From Candidatus Zixiibacteriota bacterium (GTDB lineage: Bacteria; Zixibacteria; MSB-5A5; RBG-16-43-9): a DNA stretch of 64,000 nt. Positions 2,887 through 61,896 of the stretch are shown piece after piece. Position numbers and translations under genes: made by a program. Within the stretch, counting starts at the first letter, position 1, and each line of letters opens with the position of its first letter. A model generated the notes under the pieces. The model made no database searches. It saw only the letters and a program-made list of their open reading frames with translations, and was not told the origin of the DNA. The stretch covers positions 11,258-75,257 of the forward strand of contig JAUYBY010000093.1 in assembly GCA_030692925.1 (NCBI GenBank), read 5' to 3'.

Positions 2887-3771
2887 CTAACCTGACGTTA
2901 AGATTGCATCCACTAATTTTGCCACCCTTTTGCTTTCTTTGACATCGTGAACTCTTAAGATATTTGCGCCATTCATTATGGCAGCTGCCATCGAGGCTAA
3001 ACTACCCTCTAACCTCTCTTCAGTCGGCAGATTTAATATTTTTCCGATAAACGACTTACGCGAAACTCCAACCATAAGTGGTCTGCCTAACTCTGTGAAC
3101 TCATTAAGATTTTTCAATATCTTTAAGTTATCTTCCGGGGTTTTACCAAACCCTATTCCGGGATCGATAATTATTTTGTCTTCATCGATACCGGCTTCTT
3201 TGGCAATTTTTATAGATTCTATTAGATATGTTTTAATCTCTTCAATCAGGTTATCATAATGAGGATTTTCCTGCATATTCTTCGGTGTTCCCTTAATATG
3301 CATTAAGACTACCGGAACATCGTATTTAGCTATGACTTTCTTCATCTCAGGATCATACCTCAACCCGCTTATATCATTAACCATCGAGGCACCGGAATCT
3401 AACGCCTCCTTTGCTACTCTGGATTTATAGGTGTCTATCGAGATCGGGACCTGAATCATTTTAGTTAATTCCTCAATCACCGGTATAACTCTGCGCAGTT
3501 CTTCTTCGATAGTTACAGGCTCAGAACCAGGCCTGGTAGATTCACCTCCGACATCGATCATATCCGCACCTTCTTCTGCCAATTTAAGCCCCTGTTTTAT
3601 CGCTTCCTCTAATTTGAAAAATCTTCCTCCATCTGAAAAAGAATCTGGGGTGACGTTCAGTACACCCATAAGATGTGTGCGAGAGGAAAAATCAAGTACT
3701 CTCTGTCCAATTTCCAGTAAGTATCCTTTCTTCTGATTGAGCTCTTTTAGTCCTTGTCCTTTAAGGTTCAT
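2887..3771 (-). CDS. folP: Dihydropteroate synthase
   Basis: MGVLNVTPDSFSDGG, DVGGESTRPG and the pterin-binding TIM-barrel pattern. It sits in the classic tilS-hpt-ftsH-folP gene order. Confidence 0.9.
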   Translation of the reverse strand: MNLKGQGLKELNQKKGYLLEIGQRVLDFSSRTHLMGVLNVTPDSFSDGGRFFKLEEAIKQGLKLAEEGADMIDVGGESTRPGSEPVTIEEELRRVIPVIEELTKMIQVPISIDTYKSRVAKEALDSGASMVNDISGLRYDPEMKKVIAKYDVPVVLMHIKGTPKNMQENPHYDNLIEEIKTYLIESIKIAKEAGIDEDKIIIDPGIGFGKTPEDNLKILKNLNEFTELGRPLMVGVSRKSFIGKILNLPTEERLEGSLASMAAAIMNGANILRVHDVKESKRVAKLVDAILTSG

Positions 3772-3881
3772 ATTTCCCCTGATAAAACGAGTGTATAAGG
3801 ACGGCTACATTCCCCTTTGAAGATTTCTGTCACCCTTTTTAAGAAGGATCTTCTCTACCTTTTTCAGGTTCATCCTTACTT

Positions 3882-5882
3882 TTATTTTGATTCCTTTTTA
3901 TCTTCTACTTTGCTTTTCCGGTCACTGTTTTTATTCTCAAGTTTTTCCCCCCTTAGTATCCGGTCTATCTCCACTCCATCCAGGATCTCCTTCTCTAAAA
4001 GAGCCTCAGCTAAAAGATGAAGCTTATCTAAGTTGCCACTTAAAAGATGGAAAGCTTTCTTTTCCGCTTCCTCTACAATCCTTTTTACCTCCTCATCTAT
4101 TTCCTGAGCAGTCAGCTCACTGTAATCCCTGTGTTTGGCTATTTCCCGTCCTAAGAAGATCTCCTCCTCCTTTTTGCCAAAGGTCAGAGGACCTAACTTC
4201 TCGCTCATCCCCCATTCGCACACCATCTTTCTGGCAAGCTCAGTCGCTCTTTCGATATCATTCCCCGCTCCAGTGGTCAGCTCATTGAAAACCAACTTCT
4301 CTGCTACCCTACCACCTAAAAAATGCACTAATTTAGTCTCCAGATACCCCCTTGAATGGGTATGCTTTTCATCAATGGGAAGATAATGAGTTAAACCTAA
4401 GGATAAACCTCTGGGGATTATGGTCATCTTATGAACCGGATCAGAGCCCGGGGTGAGCTTGGCTACTAAGGCATGCCCGGATTCATGATAAGCGGTGAGC
4501 TTCTTTTCCTCTTCACTTATTACCAAGCTCCTCCTCTCAGTTCCCATCATCACCTTATCCTTCGCCTCCTCAAAATCTTCCATAGTCACCTTATCGCGAT
4601 TTTTCCTGGCAGCTAAAAGCGCGGCTTCATTCACCAGGTTAGCTAAATCTGCTCCTGAAAGTCCCGGAGTTCCCCGGGCTAAAATCGATAGATCCACATC
4701 CTCAGCCATCTTTATCTTACGAGTATGAACTTTCAAGATTCCTTCCCTGCCTTTCACATCCGGGATATCCACCACCACCTGACGATCAAACCTGCCCGGT
4801 CTTAACAAAGCCGGATCTAAAACATCCGGGCGGTTAGTTGCCGCCAAGAGGATCACCCCTTCGTTTGACTCAAAACCATCCATCTCCACTAAAAGTTGAT
4901 TCAAAGTCTGTTCTCTTTCATCGTGCCCCCCACCTAAACCTGCTCCACGATGACGACCCACTGCATCAATCTCATCGATAAAGATTATACAGGGGGCACT
5001 CTTTTTTCCCTGATCAAACAGATCTCTCACCCTGGAGGCTCCTACCCCCACAAACATCTCCACAAAACCTGACCCGCTCATGCTGAAAAAAGGAACCCCG
5101 GCTTCCCCGGCAACTGCCCTGGCTAAAAGGGTTTTACCAGTTCCAGGCGCCCCTAAAAGCAAGACGCCCTTGGGTATTTTACCTCCTAATCTCTGGAATT
5201 TAGAGGGGTCCTTTAAAAACTCTATGACCTCCTGCAACTCCTGTTTAGCCTCATCTGCTCCTGCCACGTCGTTGAAGGTGACCTTGGGAGTGTTCCCGGT
5301 CAAAAGCCTGGCCCGGCTTTTGCCAAAAGAGAATATCCCTTTGGTGCCCCCTTGCATCTGCCTGAAAAGAATAAACCAGAGGAAACCTAAGAGTAGAAGA
5401 TAAGGTAGCACCCCTAAGACAAGCCCTGACCAGTTGAATTTAGGCGGTTCAGCTTTTATCTGCACACCTTTTGCTACTAATTTCTGTAGAATTGAAGGGT
5501 CCTCAAAAGGGAGATGCAGTTTGTAATTCTGGTAAGATCTGGTAACATTACCTTCTGTCTTTTTGATTGGCTTAAGGAATTCTCCAGCCACGTCCTTCTC
5601 CACCAGGAGCGCGGTTTTGACATTATTGGAATCAAGCTGCTCCAAAAACTCAGTATAGTTTATCTCCACCTCTTTTTTTAAGCCGCGGTTATAATACTGA
5701 TACAAATAGAGTGAGAGGATGATCAGAACTGCCCAGATTAACAGTGTTCTTCCGGCTTTTCTCCAGGGGAATTCACCACCTGGTCTTTCACCTTCAGGGA
5801 CTCTTTTCAATCTATTCTTTTTCTCCGGTTTAGACCTGCGGCCTCGATTTAAATCATCTTTCTTTTCACTCATATATTTCAC
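3882..5882 (-). CDS. ftsH: ATP-dependent zinc metalloprotease FtsH
   Basis: Two TM helices, AAA Walker A GAPGTGKT, Walker [12 protein letters not shown] region, and HESGHA zinc motif. Confidence 0.97.
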
Positions 5883-8128: not shown

Positions 8129-8753
8129 CTTTCCCCTTCCACATCTCCTTAGTCATCCTCATCTCCTCAAACTGAACCAGGATATCATCCCCCTCTTTTT
8201 TAAAATATTTCCTTATATCTTTGAATCGCTCATCTCCAAAAATATCTATTTTGTTTCGAGGGTCGTGTTTCTGGAATTTAGTGCTGACGAATTCAAACCC
8301 GCACTTGAGATAACATTTAATAGCCCTCTGGTTCAAAGCGACAACGTCTAAATACAGCTGCTTAAATTTCATCTTCTCAAAAAAATATGGCAAAAGTGTC
8401 CTGATAGCCTCGGTTCCATAACCTTTGTCCGTAGATTCATATCCTAAATAGATACCCAGCTTCGCCTTTTTATTTCCCCAGTCAAGGTCATAGATATTTA
8501 AAAATCCTAAAAGCTCCTCTTTGAGATCATCTATGGCTAAATAGAGCATCCGTGGGTCTTTTTTTCTTTTCAAATACCATTCCTTTTTCTGAGTCTCAGT
8601 AATTTCCCCTAAATTGTAATGAGCATACAACGGATCAGGGTACGGTTTCCATTTTAGCCTTTTGTCAATATCGTCCTTTCTAAACGGACGGATGATTATC
8701 CTTTCCCCTTTGAGCCTGAAGCGCGTTATCTTGAGTAGTAAATCAGAGGTCAT
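8112..8753 (-). CDS. GNAT family N-acetyltransferase (RimJ/RimL-like)
   Basis: Acetyl-CoA-binding core ...YESTDKGYGTEAIRTLL... and the typical GNAT beta-alpha pattern. Confidence 0.75.
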   Translation of the reverse strand: MTSDLLLKITRFRLKGERIIIRPFRKDDIDKRLKWKPYPDPLYAHYNLGEITETQKKEWYLKRKKDPRMLYLAIDDLKEELLGFLNIYDLDWGNKKAKLGIYLGYESTDKGYGTEAIRTLLPYFFEKMKFKQLYLDVVALNQRAIKCYLKCGFEFVSTKFQKHDPRNKIDIFGDERFKDIRKYFKKEGDDILVQFEEMRMTKEMWKGKEVNSR

Positions 8754-9489: not shown

Positions 9490-9564
9490 TCCCCTCCCTT
9501 GATGGGAGGGGTAGGGGAGGGTGTTCCCCTCTCCCTAACCCTCTCCCACAAGGGGAGAGGGAAC
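9490..9564. repeat. Cluster of CCCTCCC/GGGAGGG and CCCTCTCC/GGAGAGGG hairpins (REP-like)
   Basis: CCCCTCCC TTGA TGGGAGGGG and CCCTCTCC CACAA GGGGAGAGGG. The 32 nt at 9533-9564 are identical to 53479-53510. Confidence 0.85.
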
Positions 9565-53200: not shown

Positions 53201-53264
53201 ATTCTTTGATGAAAAGATCATCCACGTTGAGAAGCTCGATAAATCGAGCAACTACAATATATGC

Positions 53265-53345
53265 CCTCTCCCATAAAGGGAGAGGGAACTTCAAACCTCT
53301 CCTCAGTCAGATTTCCCTCCCTTAACGGGAGGGAATTAAAGGGAG
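53265..53345. repeat. CCCTCTCCC-ATAAA-GGGAGAGGG and TTCCCTCCC-TTAAC-GGGAGGGAA hairpins (REP-like)
   Basis: Read directly from the sequence. Confidence 0.85.
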
Positions 53346-53478
53346 GGTGAAATAAACATCACCATTATAAAAAATAAAGAGTCTTTCTACAACAAAAATT
53401 GTAGGGGCACGTTGTTACGTGCCCCTACCTTAAAAATCGACGTCCGAGATAAACCCGGACGCTACGAACTTCCCCTCA

Positions 53479-53510
53479 CCCTAACCCTCTCCCACAAGGG
53501 GAGAGGGAAC
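53479..53510. repeat. 32 nt exact copy of 9533-9564 (CCCTAACCCTCTCCCACAAGGGGAGAGGGAAC)
   Basis: Direct comparison of the two loci. Confidence 0.9.
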
Positions 53511-53528: not shown

Positions 53529-53779
53529 TTATAACGTCACCGAGACTACGTACATTCCGCCTTCTCTTTCGATCACCATCACCAGTCTTCTTTGATTCCC
53601 GACGTTGGCAATCAGCTTCTTATAATCATCCATATTTTTTATCTTTTGATTATTGATCTCCCGGATCACATCGCCTTCTCTTAAACCTAAACTTTTCCCT
53701 TTACTATTTTCTTCAACTGGCTTTTGGCTATAGCTTTTTTCTCATCAACCTTCATTCCGCAGACTGGGTCTATTGCCAC
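53529..53779 (-). pseudogene. Gene remnant: YHS/TRASH-type N-terminal fragment out of frame with a PDZ-domain C-terminal fragment
   Basis: My translation: GGAGGAATC-GTG AIDPVCGMKVDEKKAIAKSQLKKIVKGKV* (53779..53687). In another frame: GLREGDVIREINNQKIKNMDDYKKLIANVGNQRRLVMVIEREGGMYVVSVTL* (to 53529). Confidence 0.45.
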
Positions 53780-53891: not shown

Positions 53892-55043
53892 CTATACGAA
53901 ACTTAAAGCTCTTCTCAAATCCTCAATCAAATCCTCTTCATTCTCTATCCCCACGCTCAAGCGAATTAGCGTATCGCTGATCCCTAATTTTCTCCTCAGG
54001 GCAGGAGGGATAGAGGAATGGGTCATTATTCCCGGATGGTCAGCCAAAGATTCCACTCCACCCAGGCTTTCAGCTAAGGAAAACAATTTCAATTTTCGTA
54101 AGAGCCTTTTAGCCCCGGCTAAATTGCTTTTCAGCTCAAAAGAGACTATCCCTCCAAAACCGCTCATCTGCTTTTGGACTAATTTATAATCGGGATGAGA
54201 TTTTAGTCCGGGAAAGATAACCCTCTTCACTTTCTTGTGGGCTGACAAAAAGTTTGCAACCTGAATAGCATTAGCCTCATGCTCTCGCATACGCAAAGAC
54301 AAAGTCTTAAGCCCTCTTAAGACCAAGAAACAATCAAAAGGTCCTGGAACACCACCAACTGCATTCTGGCAGAATTTCATCCTGTCATAACATGCCTGGT
54401 TTGAAGTTAGAATCGCGCCCCCGACTAAGTCGCTGTGCCCTCCTAAATATTTTGTGCTGCTGTGCACTACTATATCAATTCCCAAGGAAAGGGGCTTCTG
54501 GAAGTAAGGGGTGGCAAAAGTATTATCCACCACTGAAATAAGATTATGTTTCTTAGCAAACTCTGAAACTTTTTTCAAATCGATGATCTTCAAAAGCGGA
54601 TTAGTCGGAGTCTCGACCCAGACCATTTTACTATTTTTCTTGAAAACCTTTAAGAGGTTTTCTGGAGAAGTTAAATCTACATAAGAAAATTCAAGCCCAT
54701 AATCTCTATAAACCTTTTCAAATATCCTGTAGGTACCCCCATACAGGTCATCGCAGGATATTATATGGTCTCCGGCTTTTAAGAGATTCATTACCGTGGA
54801 GATGGCTGCCATTCCGGAAGAGAAAGCCAGCCCGAATCTTGCCTCCTCTAAAGATGCCAGGCATTTCTCTAAAGCAAGTCGGGTCGGGTTGGCTGTGCGG
54901 GAATATTCATAACCTTTATGTTTTCCCGGAGATTCCTGCACATAGGTTGAGGTCTGGTAGATCGGCACGATGATGGCTCCTGTGGTTTTATCTGGCTCCT
55001 GTCCTATATGGATAGCTTTGGTCTCAAACTTCATCTTGGACAA
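53892..55043 (-). CDS. Cystathionine gamma-lyase/gamma-synthase family PLP enzyme (MccB/MetB-like)
   Basis: Cys/Met metabolism PLP fold with VVHSSTKYLGGHSD (PLP lysine). Confidence 0.9.
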   Translation of the reverse strand: MSKMKFETKAIHIGQEPDKTTGAIIVPIYQTSTYVQESPGKHKGYEYSRTANPTRLALEKCLASLEEARFGLAFSSGMAAISTVMNLLKAGDHIISCDDLYGGTYRIFEKVYRDYGLEFSYVDLTSPENLLKVFKKNSKMVWVETPTNPLLKIIDLKKVSEFAKKHNLISVVDNTFATPYFQKPLSLGIDIVVHSSTKYLGGHSDLVGGAILTSNQACYDRMKFCQNAVGGVPGPFDCFLVLRGLKTLSLRMREHEANAIQVANFLSAHKKVKRVIFPGLKSHPDYKLVQKQMSGFGGIVSFELKSNLAGAKRLLRKLKLFSLAESLGGVESLADHPGIMTHSSIPPALRRKLGISDTLIRLSVGIENEEDLIEDLRRALSFV

Positions 55044-55092: not shown

Positions 55093-56067
55093 TTAATCTA
55101 AAAATCCGTTATCCTTCATCCATTGATCCGAATAGATCTTGCTCAGATAACGGGTGCCTGAATCTGGCAGGATGGTTACAATTATTTTGTCTTTCCCCAC
55201 CTTTTTGGCTAAATCTGCTGCTACCTTTACTGCAGAGCCGCTCGAACCGCCCACGAAAAGCCCTTCTTCTTTGGTCAACCTTCGAGCCATTAAAAAAGAT
55301 TCCTTATCATTCACCTGAACGACATCGTCTATGATGGAAAAATCGACATTCTGTGCCAGCATATCCTCTCCAATCCCCTCCACCTTATAGATTTTGGGCT
55401 CGATTAGTTTCTTATGCTTGAAATAGTCATAATAGACTGAGCCGATTGGATCAACTGCGATGATCTTTAAATCAGTTTTTTTCTCTTTTAGAAATCTCCC
55501 TGCGCCGGATAAAGTTCCCCCTGTTCCAATTCCTACTACAAAGTAATCCATCTTCCCTTCAGTCTGTTCCCAGATCTCAGGTCCAGTTGTATAATAATGA
55601 GATTCGGTATTCTTAGGGTTATGATATTGATTTAAGTAAAAGGAATTCGGAGTCTCCCGGGCAATCCTTTTTGCGGTTTCATGGTAGCTCAAGGGGGAAT
55701 CTGCCGGGACGTCTGTGGGCGTCACGACTACCTCTGCGCCAAAACCTTTTAAAAGATTTATTTTCTCCAGGCTCATCTTGTCCGGAATGGTGAAGATTGC
55801 TTTATACCCTTTAATAGCTGCCACAATCACCACCCCGATCCCCGTATTCCCAGAGGTATTTTCTACTATAGTCCCCCCGGGTTTGAGCAGTCCTCTTCTT
55901 TCAGCGTCTTCGATCATATAGAGTGCCATCCGGTCCTTGATGCTCCCCCCGGGATTCATAAACTCCGCTTTGGCTAAAACCGTGGCGGAGTTTTCCCCCA
56001 CTATCCTTTTTAACTTGACCAGGGGGGTGTTGCCGATCGCTTTTAATATGTCGGGAACTATGTGCAT
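55093..56067 (-). CDS. Cystathionine beta-synthase / cysteine synthase family PLP enzyme (no CBS regulatory domains)
   Basis: IGNTPLV...NPGGSIKDR...GNTGIG...GTGGT. I prefer the start at MHIVPDIL (56067), which removes the overlap with the upstream gene. Confidence 0.9.
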   Translation of the reverse strand: MHIVPDILKAIGNTPLVKLKRIVGENSATVLAKAEFMNPGGSIKDRMALYMIEDAERRGLLKPGGTIVENTSGNTGIGVVIVAAIKGYKAIFTIPDKMSLEKINLLKGFGAEVVVTPTDVPADSPLSYHETAKRIARETPNSFYLNQYHNPKNTESHYYTTGPEIWEQTEGKMDYFVVGIGTGGTLSGAGRFLKEKKTDLKIIAVDPIGSVYYDYFKHKKLIEPKIYKVEGIGEDMLAQNVDFSIIDDVVQVNDKESFLMARRLTKEEGLFVGGSSGSAVKVAADLAKKVGKDKIIVTILPDSGTRYLSKIYSDQWMKDNGFLD

Positions 56068-56084
56068 TCTGAAAGCTAACGATT

Positions 56085-57116
56085 CTAAATACAACGGTTG
56101 GGGCATCTTCTGAAAACAGGCATATTCTTAGAGGTTTCGACCTTAACCAGTTTCTCCATCTTCTGACCATCCCGTGACAGGAGAAGTCTAACCTCTGAAC
56201 CTATGGGGGCTTTGGAGATCATCTTTCTGAACTCCGCTTCACCTTTTATCTTTTTCCCATCACAGCCTATAATCAGATCTCCCACCTTGACCCCCTGTTT
56301 GAAAGCAGGACCATCTTTATCTACCTCTGACACCTTCACCCCTTCTCCCTCTGAGCGATTCTGTTTAAGCTTGCTGCGGCCTGTGTTAGAGTAAATTCCT
56401 ATCCAGCCTCTTTTGATCTGTCCATCCTGCTTGAGGATTCTTCCTACCACCTCGCAGGTGGATGCAGGTAAGACTAAGATTACATTATCCTTACCCTCTA
56501 ATTTCCCTTCTGCCAGACCTAAAAGCTCACCCTGATAGTTGAAAATCGGTGTGCCTGCCTGATAGGAGCAAAAATTAGCGGACACAACTAATAGCTCCTG
56601 GTCATAAGGGTCGATTCCCCCGATCCAGGAAGACCCGACCGTCCCCAGAGCCACCTGCAGGCCCTTGGAGTAATTGGTGTTTCCTATTATCAGACCCAAG
56701 GTGCCGTTTCTGATCTGCTCCTTTTTTGCCAGGCGCACCGGTTTCAAATTCCCTTTTTTCAACTTGATCAAGCTGACATTGGTTTCAAAATCGCAGTAGA
56801 CGTCCGCAATTTCTGAATCCCCTATGGTAGTTCCATCCTGGAGTTTAATTTTGAGCTCATCTGAATTCTGCAGGAGGTTTTCAGTGGTGAGGATAAAATC
56901 CTTGTCCAGTACCACTCCGGAGCCGATCTTCATACTTCCGTCCACCCGGTTAACTGCTGAGATCGAGACCACCGAAGGGCCGACCTTATCCATAACCTCA
57001 TATATCTCGGACTGCATCCTTTCCAGATGGCTACCCCGGCTACATCCGCTGAGGATAAAAACAGGCAGGATAAGACAAGCTGTCTTGATAAAGGTAGAAT
57101 TTAGAGAGAACTTCAT
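56085..57116 (-). CDS. HtrA/DegS-like lipoprotein with a PDZ domain and all three catalytic residues substituted (pseudoprotease)
   Basis: Lipobox LSGC. Chymotrypsin-fold blocks align to DegP: GSGVVLDKDFILTTENLL (His to Asn), TNVSLIKL (Asp to Asn), SYQAGTPIFNYQGELLGL (GNSGG Ser to Ala). C-terminal PDZ: GVKVSEVDKDGPAFKQGVKVGDLIIGCDGKKI. Confidence 0.75.
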   Translation of the reverse strand: MKFSLNSTFIKTACLILPVFILSGCSRGSHLERMQSEIYEVMDKVGPSVVSISAVNRVDGSMKIGSGVVLDKDFILTTENLLQNSDELKIKLQDGTTIGDSEIADVYCDFETNVSLIKLKKGNLKPVRLAKKEQIRNGTLGLIIGNTNYSKGLQVALGTVGSSWIGGIDPYDQELLVVSANFCSYQAGTPIFNYQGELLGLAEGKLEGKDNVILVLPASTCEVVGRILKQDGQIKRGWIGIYSNTGRSKLKQNRSEGEGVKVSEVDKDGPAFKQGVKVGDLIIGCDGKKIKGEAEFRKMISKAPIGSEVRLLLSRDGQKMEKLVKVETSKNMPVFRRCPNRCI

Positions 57117-57146
57117 AGAAACTTTAGCGATTGGTTATGCTTTACC

Positions 57147-57626
57147 TCACTTCTGGCTGACAGTGTAGATTGTCAAGAGTCCATCGTCTTTAGCTGAGAG
57201 AAGCTGGCCCTCGTAGATGATCAGGTTATTGACCAGGCCGCCTGAACTGTAACCTCCGGATCTGAACACAGAGGAAAGGCTTATTGCTGCACCTATCAAA
57301 ATTAAAACTGAGAAGACGTAAGCCGGAACCGGACCCAAAAGAGGCGTCCGGAGTAAAGCTAAAAGCTTATCCAGTTTTTCTCGTAAATAACTTTTGAAAT
57401 CGAACAAGGGGAAAGCTGAGTTTTTTTTCGGGCTGAACCCTTCCCAGTAATTAGCTGGTGGCTTAAAATCGAGCGCCTTCTGCAGCAGGCCTAAAGCAGC
57501 GTTATATTCTTCAAACTCTTTGAAACACTCAGGACAAATCTTGAAATGCTCCTTTAAAAAACCCTTTTTCCCCTCACTCAGATCTTTATAGTCTATGAAA
57601 AAATCTTTACCTTTTTTGCACCTCAT
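57147..57626 (-). CDS. Anti-sigma factor (zf-HC2 type, single TM)
   Basis: EHFKICPEC (H-x3-C-x2-C) and a TM helix PAYVFSVLILIGAAISL. Overlaps the sigma gene by 20 nt. Confidence 0.7.
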   Translation of the reverse strand: MRCKKGKDFFIDYKDLSEGKKGFLKEHFKICPECFKEFEEYNAALGLLQKALDFKPPANYWEGFSPKKNSAFPLFDFKSYLREKLDKLLALLRTPLLGPVPAYVFSVLILIGAAISLSSVFRSGGYSSGGLVNNLIIYEGQLLSAKDDGLLTIYTVSQK

Positions 57627-58266
57627 ATTTTATCCCTGCCTTCTCCAAAATGCTGGGATGATGCTTGACCAGTTCATCCCTGAGTTTAGCCCTGGCTCGG
57701 TGCAGATACCATCTCACCGTGGCCTGGGGCATTCCGGTTACCTGAGAAACCTCCTTTATATCCAATCCTTCCAGATCCCTTAGAACGAAAACCGATCTCT
57801 GCTTAGGATTCAGGCTCTCCAGCGCTTCATCCACTGCCAGGCGAATTAACCCTCTCTGATAGACTCCTTCGACATCATTTTTCTTTTCCTTTAGCTCGCC
57901 GATGATGTTATCCAGCACTTCCAGTTTGTGTTTCCGGAATTTTCGAATAAAGTCTATCGAGGCATTGATGGTGATGCGGTAAAGCCAGGTGGATAGTTTT
58001 TTGGTAGTATCGAATCTATGCAGGTTCTGATAGATTTTTACGAAGACCATCTGGGATATATCTTTGGCATCCTCGTAATCACCCACCATCCGATAAGCTA
58101 TCCCAGCTACCTGAACTTTATACCTCTGCACTATCTCCTGGAAAGCCTCCTGGTCACCTCCTTGAGCTTTTTTGATTATTTCTAAAAGCTCCTCCTCCTT
58201 TTTTTCAGATGAATTACTTAGTCTTTCCTTGGCTAATTTTTCATCCTTTAAATTATCAAAGGCCAT
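57607..58266 (-). CDS. ECF (group 4) RNA polymerase sigma factor
   Basis: Region 2 (…DAKDISQMVFVKIYQNLHRFD…STWLYRITINASIDFIRK) and region 4 (…RSVFVLRDLEGLDIKEVSQVTGMPQATVRWYLHRARAKLR). Confidence 0.9.
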   Translation of the reverse strand: MAFDNLKDEKLAKERLSNSSEKKEEELLEIIKKAQGGDQEAFQEIVQRYKVQVAGIAYRMVGDYEDAKDISQMVFVKIYQNLHRFDTTKKLSTWLYRITINASIDFIRKFRKHKLEVLDNIIGELKEKKNDVEGVYQRGLIRLAVDEALESLNPKQRSVFVLRDLEGLDIKEVSQVTGMPQATVRWYLHRARAKLRDELVKHHPSILEKAGIKYEVQKR

Positions 58267-58336
58267 ACAATCTCTTCGTTATAAAATACGCTTGGTTTTA
58301 GGTTGTCGTTTGGTTACTTCTTTTTTTACAAAAAAT

Positions 58337-59752: not shown

Positions 59753-60221
59753 GCGTTATTTTATTAGAATATATTCCCTTTTTAGAATTTTATTCACCAC
59801 CCGGACAAATTTATCCGAGTTTAAGGCTTGAAGGGTATATATATGCCAGCAGGTCTTCTCTGGCAATTTAGAATTGAGTTTTCTTCTCTTAGTGTTATTG
59901 CTCACCTTTTTTCTCCCTTAAGTCTAACCTTTTTTTCCTCTGCTCGAGATTAAGAGCAATCTTTGTGCCTAAGTGCAGAGAGTTTTCACCGCAACTTTTG
60001 CTTTTTTAATTCACTCCCTTGCATTGAATTAAAATGAATTGGATTCAAAGAATCTACAGACAGGTCAAATTTTGTGGAAAAAAAAGATTGACCATTGGCA
60101 ATATTCTATTGGCTTTCCCCCATACTCAAATCCGATTTTTTGTTTTTTACGGGAAATTTTTGTTTGTAATCAAAAGGAAGTTTTGCTATCTTTTCCGAAA
60201 CCTGTATCCTTAGATTAACGT

Positions 60222-60809
60222 ATGCAGAAAAAGAAGACATGGGTGACTCAGGACGACCAGACTCTGGTGAAGGAGGCGCTGGAAGGGAAACAGAAGGCTT
60301 TCAAGCTTCTGATGGAGAGGCATAAAAATGCGGTTCAGCACGTCATCTTGAAGCTGGTTCATAATTACGATGAGTCCCTGGACTTAGTACAGGAAACCTT
60401 TGTCAAGGCTTTTAGCTCCTTGGCAACCTATAAGACAAAATTCCGTTTTACTACCTGGCTTTACCGGATTGCGGCTAACAGCTCAATAGACTATCTGCGC
60501 CGGAAAAAAATCGAGGCTTTCTCCCTGGATCAACCCCGGAAAACGGAGAAAGGTGAATTCGAAATCGAGATCCCGGACCGAACATTTGACCCGGAAAAAG
60601 ATTTTGATCTAAAGCAACGAGAGCTATCAGTGGAAGAGGCAATAGCCTCTCTTCCCAAAAGGTACCAAGAGGTTATCCTGTACCGTCACAAAGAGGACAA
60701 ATCGTATGAGGAGATAGCTTCGATCCTGCATCTCTCCTTGGGCACGGTTAAAGCCAGAATTTTCAGAGCCAGGGTCCTGCTAAAAAAGAAACTCAAACAT
60801 ATGAGGTAA
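60222..60809 (+). CDS. ECF (group 4) RNA polymerase sigma factor
   Basis: Region 2 (…ESLDLVQETFVKAFSSL…FTTWLYRIAANSSIDYLRR) and region 4 (…YQEVILYRHKEDKSYEEIASILHLSLGTVKARIFRARVLL). Confidence 0.9.
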   Translation: MQKKKTWVTQDDQTLVKEALEGKQKAFKLLMERHKNAVQHVILKLVHNYDESLDLVQETFVKAFSSLATYKTKFRFTTWLYRIAANSSIDYLRRKKIEAFSLDQPRKTEKGEFEIEIPDRTFDPEKDFDLKQRELSVEEAIASLPKRYQEVILYRHKEDKSYEEIASILHLSLGTVKARIFRARVLLKKKLKHMR

Positions 60810-60816
60810 TAAAGAC

Positions 60817-61896
60817 ATGAAAAGACATAAAAAAGATTATTTTAAGATCTTTATCTGCGGAGTGATGTTTCTCTTTTTCCCCGCGCTCCTGAAGGCGAAG
60901 GAATTCAACTTCCCGCTGCAGAAGGAATTTACTTTGGAGGAACCTCTATCCCTGGAAGTTGAAGACCCCAGAGGGGAGATCATTTTGGAATCACATAATC
61001 TAAACAAGATCATAATCCAAACCTCCAAGATAGTTGAGGCTAAGGACAGCAGGGAAGCAGAGGAGCTCGCCCAGAGAATCAGAATAGATATCGAGAAAGC
61101 TGGGGCTTTAGTTCGCATCAAGACGAAATACCAGGGGACTGACAGAGGTGGTTTCTGGGAAAGACTCTTCTCAGGTAAAAAATCAGTAGAAGGATATGTG
61201 AGTTATCATATCTTCGTTCCCAAAGATATTCGCGAAGCAGATATCTCGGTAACCAGCGGAGAGATAAGGGCTTTCTACCTTAAGGGGAAGTTGAATCTGA
61301 GTGCAACCTCCGGGGATATTGAGTTAGAAGGGGTTGAAGGAGAAATCTTTTCCTCTGCTACCAGTGGCAATATTCAGGCCAGGGATTTAAAAGGCAAAAT
61401 CAGCCTGGAGGGGACCAGTTCTGATATGCAGGTGAAAAATCTGGTGGGAGATCTGAGCGTAGATTGCACCAGTGGCACAGTGAATATCGAAGACTTTAAA
61501 GGCTCTCTTAAGTCCTCCCAGACCTCAGGAGATTTAGAAGGCAGAGGACTCAAAGGAGACGTAAGCGTTACCACCACCTCTGGGGATGTCTCAGTAGAGC
61601 AGACAGACGGGGGCCTGGATTTAAATTCCACCAGCGGAGATCTTGAAGCTAAAACTCAGATTGTGCCTCCAAGAAACTATTACCTTAAAACTACCAGTGG
61701 AGAAGTTTATCTTTCCATTTCCAAAGGAGCACAGTCGGATTTAAAAATAGAGACCACCAGCGGAGAGATCAGCATGAATGTACCGATGGTCTTAAAAAAT
61801 GCGTCTCGCTATTTACTTTCCGGAAAGCTGGGTTCTGGAGGCGCGAAAATAGAAATAGAAACAGTAAGTGGAGATATAGGCATAGAGGAGTATTAA
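60817..61896 (+). CDS. DUF4097-type beta-strand repeat protein (putative extracytoplasmic, N-terminal anchor or signal)
   Basis: At least 8 repeats of the T(S/T)SG(D/E/N/T)(I/V/L) unit with about 20 aa period (TSGEIRA, TSGDIEL, TSGNIQA, TSSDMQV, TSGTVNI, TSGDLEG, TSGDVSV, TSGEVYL...). Confidence 0.8.
   Translation: MKRHKKDYFKIFICGVMFLFFPALLKAKEFNFPLQKEFTLEEPLSLEVEDPRGEIILESHNLNKIIIQTSKIVEAKDSREAEELAQRIRIDIEKAGALVRIKTKYQGTDRGGFWERLFSGKKSVEGYVSYHIFVPKDIREADISVTSGEIRAFYLKGKLNLSATSGDIELEGVEGEIFSSATSGNIQARDLKGKISLEGTSSDMQVKNLVGDLSVDCTSGTVNIEDFKGSLKSSQTSGDLEGRGLKGDVSVTTTSGDVSVEQTDGGLDLNSTSGDLEAKTQIVPPRNYYLKTTSGEVYLSISKGAQSDLKIETTSGEISMNVPMVLKNASRYLLSGKLGSGGAKIEIETVSGDIGIEEY

Follow-up and report, generated by a model that had tools for sequence, protein, structure and literature searches.

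The 64,000-nucleotide stretch of Candidatus Zixiibacteriota DNA analyzed here (contig JAUYBY010000093.1; referred to as the window, the 64-kb numbering of which is used for all coordinates) contains three packed open reading frames (ORFs) on the minus strand, encoding a sigma factor of the extracytoplasmic function (ECF) type, a single-pass anti-sigma factor, and a lipoprotein that combines the fold of the HtrA proteases with a PDZ domain. The lipoprotein, designated pseudo-HtrA, has lost the catalytic residues of its protease relatives. An earlier note on this DNA, based on inspection of the sequence by eye, had described the same three genes with identical boundaries, and the ORFs, the domain matches, and the presence of a lipobox confirmed that description. 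The genes and the promoter-like motif that precedes them are as follows.

57607-58266, minus strand: ECF (group 4) sigma factor gene, 219 residues (Sigma70_r2, 1.5e-18; Sigma70_r4_2, 1.1e-17; Sigma70_ECF, 2.2e-8)
57147-57626, minus strand: gene for a single-pass anti-sigma factor, 159 residues, overlapping the sigma gene by 20 nt
56085-57116, minus strand: pseudo-HtrA gene, encoding a 343-residue lipoprotein, 30 nt downstream of the anti-sigma gene
58287-58312, minus strand: motif CAAACGACAACCTAAAACCAAGCGTA (CAAAC-N17-CGTA), a putative ECF-type promoter through which the operon would be autoregulated, located ~20 nt before the start codon of the sigma gene

Loss of the catalytic residues in a complete HtrA fold

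The pseudo-HtrA sequence contains a lipobox, L-S-G-C25, predicted to be lipidated at Cys25, and matched Pfam families Trypsin_2 (9.3e-11), PDZ_2 (7.8e-14), and PDZ_6 (2.3e-8). NCBIfam models for DegP, DegS, and DegQ were matched with E values of 1e-31 to 1e-24 at about a quarter of their curated cut-offs, the scores remaining under the cut-off both for TIGR02037 (1e-31, 110 bits versus 416) and for DegS (2e-28, 100 bits versus 423). Alignment by phmmer to solved DegP structures placed Asn80 opposite His105, Asn113 opposite Asp135, and Ala187 opposite Ser210, in agreement with the replacements of His by Asn, Asp by Asn, and Ser by Ala that the earlier note had read by eye. The corresponding blocks of pseudo-HtrA and DegP read ilttENll and vvtnNHvv for the His, fetNvslikl and prsDialiqi for the Asp, and syqAgtp and rgn[S/A]gga for the Ser. 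The Gly residue of the oxyanion hole (position 193 of chymotrypsin), two positions ahead of the nucleophile, is replaced by Tyr185, the loop SYQAGTP taking the place of GNSGGA/P. A triad located elsewhere in the fold was also looked for and none was found: the single His of the protein, H30, belongs to an N-terminal helix that lies ahead of the protease fold. Since the fold itself contains no His, no alternative His/Asp/Ser triad can exist. As judged from these alignments, pseudo-HtrA is a non-peptidase homologue of the HtrA/DegP/DegS proteases (MEROPS S1C).

The AlphaFold2 model of pseudo-HtrA, built with 110 homologues, had a predicted local distance difference test (pLDDT) score of 85.8 and a predicted TM-score (pTM) of 0.82. 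Comparison of this model with known structures by Foldseek retrieved DegP, DegS, DegQ, and MucD with E values of ~1e-24, and target-normalized TM-scores for DegS, AlgW, MucD, and DegP reached 0.89. According to the model, the fold is complete and the chemistry alone is gone. The carboxylate-binding loop of the PDZ domain, RGWIGI, closely resembles the RGYIGI loop of DegS, and R236, G237, and G240 of this loop were invariant or nearly so in 27 diverse members of the family.

The last 10 residues (334 to 343) form a basic tail, ...FRRCPNRCI, with AlphaFold2 pLDDT values of ~71 to 82 and no strand. The hydrophobic end of this C terminus could be a PDZ ligand, in cis, in trans, or for an active HtrA. 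Among the pseudo-HtrAs of Zixibacteria, Cys does not vary at positions 108 and 338, and conservation of C221 reaches 90% or more. Pairing of Cys108 with Cys221 in a disulfide or a metal site, close to where MamO and kallikrein have their metal site, was considered and kept only as a lineage-specific speculation, neither Cys being conserved in the broad family.

Distribution of the substitutions in the pseudo-HtrA family

A word-indexed search returned 175 clusters at E values of 1e-10 or lower, of which the named ones were from Zixibacteria, and the triad columns were read in 120 of them (43 to 100% identity). The public labels of these homologues commonly read 'serine protease Do/DegS.' The His column contained Asn in 117 homologues and Ser in the other 3, His never being found, and the Asp column contained Asn in 110 of the 120. 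The motifs that surround the triad columns (TTEN, DFETN, GNTNYSKGL, SWIGG, and GTP[IV]FN) were near-invariant. The nucleophile column, in contrast, was unconstrained: G, S, P, C, A, and T all occurred, with Ser present in 15 of the 120 homologues and in many of the distant ones as well. The loss of His and Asp was therefore found to be conserved, whereas the Ala seen in the window was not, and the combination Asn/Asn/Ala is not the state of the family.

The distant part of the family was collected with HMMER, run exhaustively against 1.84 billion representatives, and the boundary of the family proved to be sharp. At the 50% identity level, ~25 clusters (26 to 44% identical, 320 to 365 residues, with a lipobox) never had His in the triad column, and nearly all contained the 'ETN' motif. 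The longer DegP/Q-type proteins that came next in the match list (~400 to 680 residues) nearly all displayed His, Asp, and Ser. The features that were universal in the 27 diverse members are TT, D-ETN, W-GG-D in the L3 region, the PDZ loop RGW-G-, and the basic tail. A C terminus of the form RxR[RL]CxxR[ST]-hydrophobic is the hallmark of the family and is retained down to 26% identity. The ratio of nonsynonymous to synonymous substitution rates (dN/dS), obtained from the sole unsaturated comparison (the window versus locus L002, dS = 0.47), was 0.12 for pseudo-HtrA, 0.07 for the sigma factor, and 0.15 for the anti-sigma factor. Together, these patterns of residues and substitutions indicate that the catalytic loss is ancient and selected, rather than recent decay.

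Linkage of pseudo-HtrA to the sigma/anti-sigma pair

Scanning of genomes for pseudo-HtrA identified 27 loci (L-numbers below designate these and other genome loci, and P-numbers designate distant representatives from the homologue search), all in metagenome-assembled genomes (MAGs). The closest, from Zixibacteria RBG_16_43_9, showed 99% identity. The order sigma, anti-sigma, pseudo-HtrA was found in all 24 loci with upstream sequence. Nine distant representatives were also taken, of which one, P0124, is a 1.9-kb contig that contains no upstream DNA. The same three-gene order was found in the eight others (26 to 44% identity), the middle gene encoding in each case a protein of 155 to 195 residues with a ZAS motif. 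The anti-sigma gene of L034 had not been called and was recovered by translation of the gap. In one distant branch, a gene for a cation diffusion facilitator (CDF) transporter is inserted right after the sigma gene. All other neighbours of the three genes differ between branches. Pseudo-HtrA has thus stayed with the sigma/anti-sigma pair through deep divergence, and the earlier suggestion that the gene is hard-wired into this context was borne out. The findings that the earlier note had named as refuting its reading (a triad elsewhere in the fold, substitutions that are not conserved, or a lack of synteny with the sigma pair) were all checked, and the outcomes favoured that reading, with the reservation noted above for the nucleophile column.

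Several MAGs (among L002, L005 to L008, L012 to L017, and L026) carry the labels 'Terriglobales' and 'Ignavibacteria,' which clash with the 45 to 89% protein identity and the full synteny of their loci to those of Zixibacteria. These MAGs are probably mis-binned or mislabelled.

The anti-sigma factor and its conserved outer tail

The anti-sigma factor contains an N-terminal motif of the HxxxCxxC ZAS type, H27-x3-C31-x2-C34 (HFKICPEC), and one hydrophobic 19-mer (residues 103 to 121, mean Kyte-Doolittle hydropathy of 2.2) as the transmembrane segment, followed by an extracytoplasmic tail of ~37 residues, NNLIIYEGQLLSAKDDGLLTIYTVSQK. The earlier note had assigned this protein to zf-HC2. The motif and the transmembrane segment agree with that assignment, but the window protein itself gave no match to Pfam zf-HC2 (PF13490) at an E value of 0.1 or lower; one orthologue did, with an E value of 0.015. 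The window protein had a weak match to an anti-sigma model of NCBIfam (0.0085) and a BLASTP match (2e-11) to the anti-sigma factor of the distant operon L028, for which a zf-HC2 match is recorded. The ZAS-type (zf-HC2) label is based on the motif, the position of the gene, the weak NCBIfam match, and the homology to the L028 protein. The HFKICPEC motif was kept in 24 of 25 orthologues, the exception being L023 with HxxxCxxRC, and it was conserved in the distant operons too. As a putative member of this class, the protein would bind and inhibit the cognate sigma factor and would bind zinc.

The tail is the best-conserved segment of the anti-sigma factor: the 25 orthologues are ~35% identical overall, and ~30 residues of the tail are near-identical, NNLVVYEGELLSAVDDGGVTIYT. 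A relaxed form of this motif, N-L-I...DDG...-Y, persists in operons whose pseudo-HtrA is only ~34% identical. Such a strong constraint on so short an outer tail suggests that the tail has a dedicated binding partner. Pseudo-HtrA is a candidate for this partner, since it is the sole protein that always accompanies the tail.

The sigma factor and its putative promoter

The domain scan of the sigma factor yielded the ECF-type matches indicated above (regions 2 and 4_2 and Sigma70_ECF) and no match to region 3. The score against the general ECF model, TIGR02937, was 110.7 bits, for a cut-off of 42.9. The best specific NCBIfam models were SigW-like, yet the scores were under the cut-off (127 bits for SigW). 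Residues 1 to 35 form a Lys/Glu-rich N-terminal extension before region 2, which is present in all orthologues and comprises ~45 residues in the distant loci.

The two-block motif CAAAC-N17-CGTA(T) was kept in 22 loci, ~20 to 35 nt before the start of the sigma gene, with one copy per operon. In the 64-kb window, the only strict match is that located at 58312-58287 on the minus strand. Additional strict matches were found far downstream in L009 (one, at 8585) and L017 (one, at 9518), and on the opposite strand in L016 (one). The motif resembles the sigma-W-type promoter, TGAAAC-N16-CGTA, and has the AAC/CGT character of ECF promoters. This conserved promoter-like motif fits an operon that is putatively autoregulated. 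A relaxed match at 60198 overlaps the start codon of a second sigma gene of the window and was set aside as probably not meaningful.

That second gene encodes an ECF sigma factor of 195 residues and is followed by a gene for a DUF4097 'toastrack' membrane protein (60222-61896, plus strand), the two being divergent from the first operon. They may form a second sigma/anti-sigma-like pair. They are syntenic with the first operon in L001, L003, L004, L006, L008, and the distant L038.

Genes downstream of pseudo-HtrA and a deletion in the window

The operon does not end with the pseudoprotease gene, the last of the three genes in the earlier note. A PALP gene overlaps the pseudo-HtrA stop codon and a further enzyme gene comes next, and the ancestral arrangement in Zixibacteria continues with a YHS gene and a gene for an active HtrA, designated HtrA2. 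The following features were located downstream of pseudo-HtrA in the window.

55093-56106, minus strand: gene for a PALP enzyme, pyridoxal phosphate (PLP) dependent and CysK/CBS-like (PALP, 5.2e-77)
53892-55043, minus strand: gene for a Cys/Met-metabolism PLP enzyme of the cystathionine gamma-lyase/synthase type (Cys_Met_Meta_PP, 2.7e-156)
53687-53779, minus strand: truncated YHS gene, 31 codons, starting with MAIDPVCGMKVDEKK...; deletion junction at ~53719/53720
53532-53717, minus strand: 3' remnant of HtrA2, last ~62 codons, second PDZ domain (tblastn, 71% identity to residues 456 to 517 of L003 HtrA2)
53401-53428, minus strand: terminator-like hairpin after the HtrA2 remnant, 12-bp stem with 8 G-C pairs and a T-rich tail

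In its longest form, the PALP ORF shares 22 nt with the 3' end of the pseudo-HtrA gene; a start at Met14 would leave a gap of 17 nt. The PALP gene is located between pseudo-HtrA and YHS only in the lineage of the window (L001 to L006), as a lineage-specific insertion, and the Cys/Met-PLP gene is a lineage-specific passenger that follows it in L001 to L004. The two genes resemble a transsulfuration or cysteine-H2S pair that would be placed under a sigma factor responding to envelope or metal stress. In >20 Zixibacteria loci, a YHS gene (50 to 54 residues; PF04945, 2e-15 to 3e-18) and then HtrA2 come after pseudo-HtrA in the same orientation, and an active HtrA is present at this position in nearly all of the related Zixibacteria loci. 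Intact HtrA2 (~512 residues) has an N-terminal membrane anchor, the triad motifs TNxHV, SDLAV, and GNSGGP, a Trypsin_2 match (8.6e-34), and two PDZ domains. The promoter motif was also sought before the YHS and HtrA2 genes and was not found.

Comparison with L003 and L001 by blastn revealed a deletion of ~1.5 kb relative to L003 in the window, which joins the first 21 codons of YHS out of frame to the end of HtrA2. In L001, the closest relative, HtrA2 is present and is broken only by a scaffold gap of Ns, indicating that the loss of YHS and HtrA2 is private to this genome or assembly. The deletion may be an assembly artefact, as an alternative to a real loss. The strong terminator-like hairpin at 53428-53401 is where transcription of the unit likely ends. 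Upstream of it, as far as the promoter motif, the consensus scan detected only one weak terminator-like match on the minus strand, at 54324-54303 inside the Cys/Met-PLP gene, with 3 G-C pairs. The intergenic DNA past the HtrA2 remnant contains two copies (53264-53289 and 53485-53510) of a palindromic element of 23 to 26 nt, CCCTCTCCC-N5-GGGAGAGGG, with short matches in the equivalent intergenic DNA of L003 and L005. This element may be a repetitive extragenic palindromic (REP)-like element or a transcription stop signal.

Metal-related neighbours

A CDF gene (Cation_efflux, 5.3e-43; ZT_dimer) is located directly upstream of the sigma gene in loci L009 to L013 and L018 to L024; 7 of these loci have a complete copy, that of L018 is interrupted where the contig stops, and 4 more loci retain remnants. 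None is present in the window. In the P0127 branch, the order is sigma, CDF, anti-sigma, pseudo-HtrA, OEP, CusB/CzcB (with a heavy-metal-binding domain [HMBD]), and a resistance-nodulation-division (RND) pump. In L028 and L029, the operon extends into OEP, CusB/CzcB(HMBD), and RND genes, with divergent genes for an ArsR-type HTH_5 protein and OsmC, and the CDF gene of L028 is at 3491-4384. Since other branches carry an LVIVD-repeat gene or unrelated genes in place of metal genes, the metal link is real in some lineages but is not what all the branches share.

Proposed function of pseudo-HtrA

The constant set associated with these loci is composed of the sigma factor, a ZAS anti-sigma factor with a conserved tail, and a dead HtrA with a PDZ groove, which favours a model in which pseudo-HtrA is a partner of the anti-sigma factor. 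According to this model, the SigW-like ECF sigma factor would be held at the membrane by the single-pass ZAS-type anti-sigma factor. The pseudo-HtrA lipoprotein would be a dedicated extracytoplasmic partner that binds the short, conserved, hairpin-like outer tail of the anti-sigma factor. Pseudo-HtrA would protect the tail against site-1 cleavage, in the manner of RseB/MucB, or relay a periplasmic signal, in the manner of CnrX. The signal could be a peptide C terminus recognized by the PDZ domain or, in certain lineages, metal ions. Release of the sigma factor would follow, through regulated proteolysis or a conformational change, and the freed sigma factor would activate its own operon from the CAAAC-N17-CGTA promoter. 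In those Zixibacteria that have the ancestral YHS and HtrA2 genes, active HtrA2 would be a plausible site-1 protease or a quality-control output. What we infer in this scheme is that pseudo-HtrA binds the tail, in which direction it regulates, what the signal is, and which protein is the site-1 protease. We assign a probability of about one-half to pseudo-HtrA being an RseB- or CnrX-like extracytoplasmic partner of the anti-sigma factor. A broader formulation, which we advance tentatively and rate somewhat below even odds, is that these loci would define an undescribed class of ECF modules in Zixibacteria and related uncultured lineages, in which a ZAS anti-sigma factor has the dead DegS-like lipoprotein as its obligate sensor or gatekeeper in the periplasm, signals are read via the PDZ domain and the basic C-terminal tail, and some branches are wired to heavy-metal efflux (CDF, YHS, and CzcCBA-like functions).

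Several observations weigh against a partnership between pseudo-HtrA and the anti-sigma tail. The tails of L015, L017, and L026 have diverged, yet the pseudo-HtrAs of these loci differ at one conserved column only (A54G), and no co-evolving interface was seen in a test of co-variation between the tail and pseudo-HtrA that relied on these three diverged loci and few evolutionary events. The anti-sigma factor ends with Lys or Arg, which is atypical for a ligand of HtrA PDZ domains, and the invariant hydrophobic end of pseudo-HtrA itself may mean that the PDZ ligand is something other than the anti-sigma factor. The Ser or Gly at position +2 of the lipoprotein would sort it to the outer membrane, far from a 37-residue tail emerging from the inner membrane, if the rules of E. 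coli apply, which may not be those of this phylum. Finally, the third place in an autoregulated operon is equally expected of a simple output of the regulon, such as MucD.

Alternative explanations

The last point corresponds to an explanation in which pseudo-HtrA would be purely an output of the regulon, serving in the periplasm as a holdase or chaperone devoid of proteolytic activity, as protease-dead DegP does, and exerting no control over the sigma factor. Its gene is the third of an apparently autoregulated operon, active HtrAs hold the same position in rpoE-rseA-mucD operons (PMC4229105), and the conserved PDZ groove would suit unfolded clients. We consider this explanation unlikely, because genes of this kind are usually exchangeable, whereas the linkage is here unbroken down to 26% identity while other neighbours change, and because the unusually strong constraint on the anti-sigma tail points to a dedicated partner. 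The earlier idea of an adaptor for another protease has a concrete candidate for that protease in HtrA2. By analogy with MamO, pseudo-HtrA would activate or direct the neighbouring active HtrA2, which would cut the anti-sigma factor or other clients; this could involve hetero-oligomers, or the invariant ...RRCxxRS-hydrophobic tail could be offered to the PDZ domains of HtrA2. MamO is known to activate MamE-dependent proteolysis without needing a triad of its own (PMC4794232). In >20 Zixibacteria loci, the dead HtrA is paired with an active, transmembrane-anchored HtrA that has two PDZ domains and is encoded on the same strand, a few hundred bases downstream. This pairing fits the scheme, as does the C-terminal tail with its hydrophobic end, which is a hallmark of the family, and no same-strand terminator-like site was found between pseudo-HtrA and HtrA2 in L012, the one locus scanned. 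The scheme is weakened because the HtrA2 neighbour is absent in all the distant branches sampled and deleted here: none of the nine distant members has an adjacent active HtrA, whereas all eight with upstream sequence retain the sigma/anti-sigma link, and the pseudo-HtrA of the window is intact and selected despite the deletion of HtrA2 at the locus. The absence of the ECF promoter motif before YHS and HtrA2 is a further argument against it, and it appears to us rather improbable.

Repurposing of the dead domain for the binding of transition metals would make pseudo-HtrA a sensor that reports periplasmic Zn, Cu, or Cd to the anti-sigma factor, in a switch resembling CnrYXH. The CDF genes found directly upstream of sigma in Zixibacteria loci, the gene for the metal-binding YHS protein found directly downstream of pseudo-HtrA in >20 loci, and the efflux genes into which the P0127 branch runs are all in keeping with such a sensor, MamO is an earlier example of a dead HtrA domain that binds metal, and the Cys residues at positions 108, 338, and 221 are conserved within Zixibacteria. 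However, the window and several branches have no metal-related neighbours, conservation of C108 and C221 does not extend to the broad family, and there is no conserved His; a role restricted to metal sensing is, in our view, a poor prospect. Recent decay of the gene, or a protease that remains active through other residues, could be invoked from the presence of Ser in the nucleophile column of some close and many distant homologues. Such an explanation is highly implausible: the triad His is lacking in every member of the family examined, the fold in the window contains no His, the Gly of the oxyanion hole is replaced, dN/dS is 0.12, and the family spans 26 to 100% identity. A pseudogene in recent decay was accordingly rejected on the loss of His and Asp across the family and on this ratio. 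From the permanent loss of the catalytic residues and the family-wide linkage to the sigma/anti-sigma pair, the dead HtrA is most likely a non-cutting sensor or gatekeeper of a signalling switch.

Comparison with known systems

The locus is organized like the rpoE-rseA-rseB-rseC operon of E. coli, which likewise encodes an ECF sigma factor, a co-transcribed single-pass anti-sigma factor, and a periplasmic third product, RseB, in the position held here by pseudo-HtrA (PMC8103513). RseB has an unrelated fold, the scaffold being here DegS-like and the proposed job RseB-like, and RseA has a folded periplasmic domain, whereas the ZAS-type anti-sigma factor exposes ~37 periplasmic residues. DegS shares with pseudo-HtrA the chymotrypsin fold and one PDZ domain (TM-scores of 0.84 to 0.89) but is active, anchored by a transmembrane segment rather than lipidated, and encoded elsewhere. 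No homology of pseudo-HtrA to RseB/MucB or CnrX was found, Pfam and NCBIfam yielding trypsin and PDZ families only and the fold being that of HtrA. An HtrA gene directly follows the sigma and anti-sigma genes in the autoregulated algU-mucABCD operon of Pseudomonas and in the rpoE-rseA-mucD operons of Xanthomonas and Stenotrophomonas (PMC4229105). MucD is among the best fold matches of pseudo-HtrA; it is an active DegP-type protease with two PDZ domains, whereas pseudo-HtrA is a dead lipoprotein with one PDZ domain and a basic C-terminal tail. The sigma models closest to the window protein are those of SigW, and RsiW of Bacillus subtilis, which is processed by PrsW and RasP, is also a single-pass anti-sigma factor. 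The SigW operon, however, has no HtrA-like third gene, and its site-1 protease, PrsW, is unrelated (PMC3498285).

The MamO/MamE pair also associates a degenerate HtrA pseudoprotease under selection, with a residue other than Gly at position 193, with an active PDZ-containing HtrA encoded nearby, and the non-catalytic roles of MamO include activation of a partner and metal binding (PMC4794232). The two traits considered in that study, a degenerate triad and a non-Gly residue at position 193, are both found in pseudo-HtrA. The match to the NCBIfam MamO model was weak (1.1e-6, 27 bits for a cut-off of 800). MamO contains a TauE domain and a surface di-His site and belongs to a magnetosome context, whereas pseudo-HtrA has no TauE domain, a lone His outside the fold, and no magnetosome genes nearby. 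MamO keeps the His and Asp and has a Thr nucleophile, whereas pseudo-HtrA has lost both His and Asp. The conserved partnership of pseudo-HtrA is with the sigma/anti-sigma pair and not with the active HtrA, whereas the known HtrA pseudoproteases are not linked to sigma factors. In Cupriavidus metallidurans, CnrYXH-CnrCBA is likewise a three-component ECF system, in which the sensor CnrX docks the short C-terminal part of CnrY (PMC6851896), and the P0127 branch, upstream of OEP, CzcB-like, and RND genes, recalls the layout of cnrYXH-cnrCBA. CnrX has no relationship to HtrA, being a four-helix-bundle dimer anchored in the membrane, CnrY belongs to another class of anti-sigma factors, and the putative metal link is here confined to certain lineages.

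The earlier note knew of no described module of this kind. Searches of the literature on pseudo- or inactive HtrAs with anti-sigma factors, and of a review on metal-responsive ECF systems, did not retrieve a description of the combination, and trypsin, PDZ, and DegP are not mentioned in the main text of the ECF reclassification paper. The claim needs to be narrowed, since HtrA genes in sigma operons (PMC4229105) and HtrA pseudoproteases (PMC4794232) are both known. The parts, namely, active HtrAs in sigma operons, the MamO pseudoprotease, and regulators such as RseB and CnrX, are thus familiar, whereas the combination appears to be new, and the existence of the family and of the module is well supported at the level of sequence.

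Site-1 cleavage of anti-sigma factors by proteases of the HtrA family is a textbook mechanism, and the same scaffold appears here to have been recycled as a component of a switch that does not cut. The labels 'serine protease Do/DegS' attached to pseudo-HtrAs in public databases are misleading for annotation. If the proposed function is correct, pseudo-HtrA would be, after MamO, a second independent case in which a dead HtrA has been retained to serve in regulation. The three genes would then provide a compact and portable switch, composed of a sigma factor, an anti-sigma factor with a 37-residue tail, and a soluble sensor, with a promoter motif that can already be predicted, and a sensor based on a pseudoenzyme would be added to the known modes of control of ECF sigma factors.

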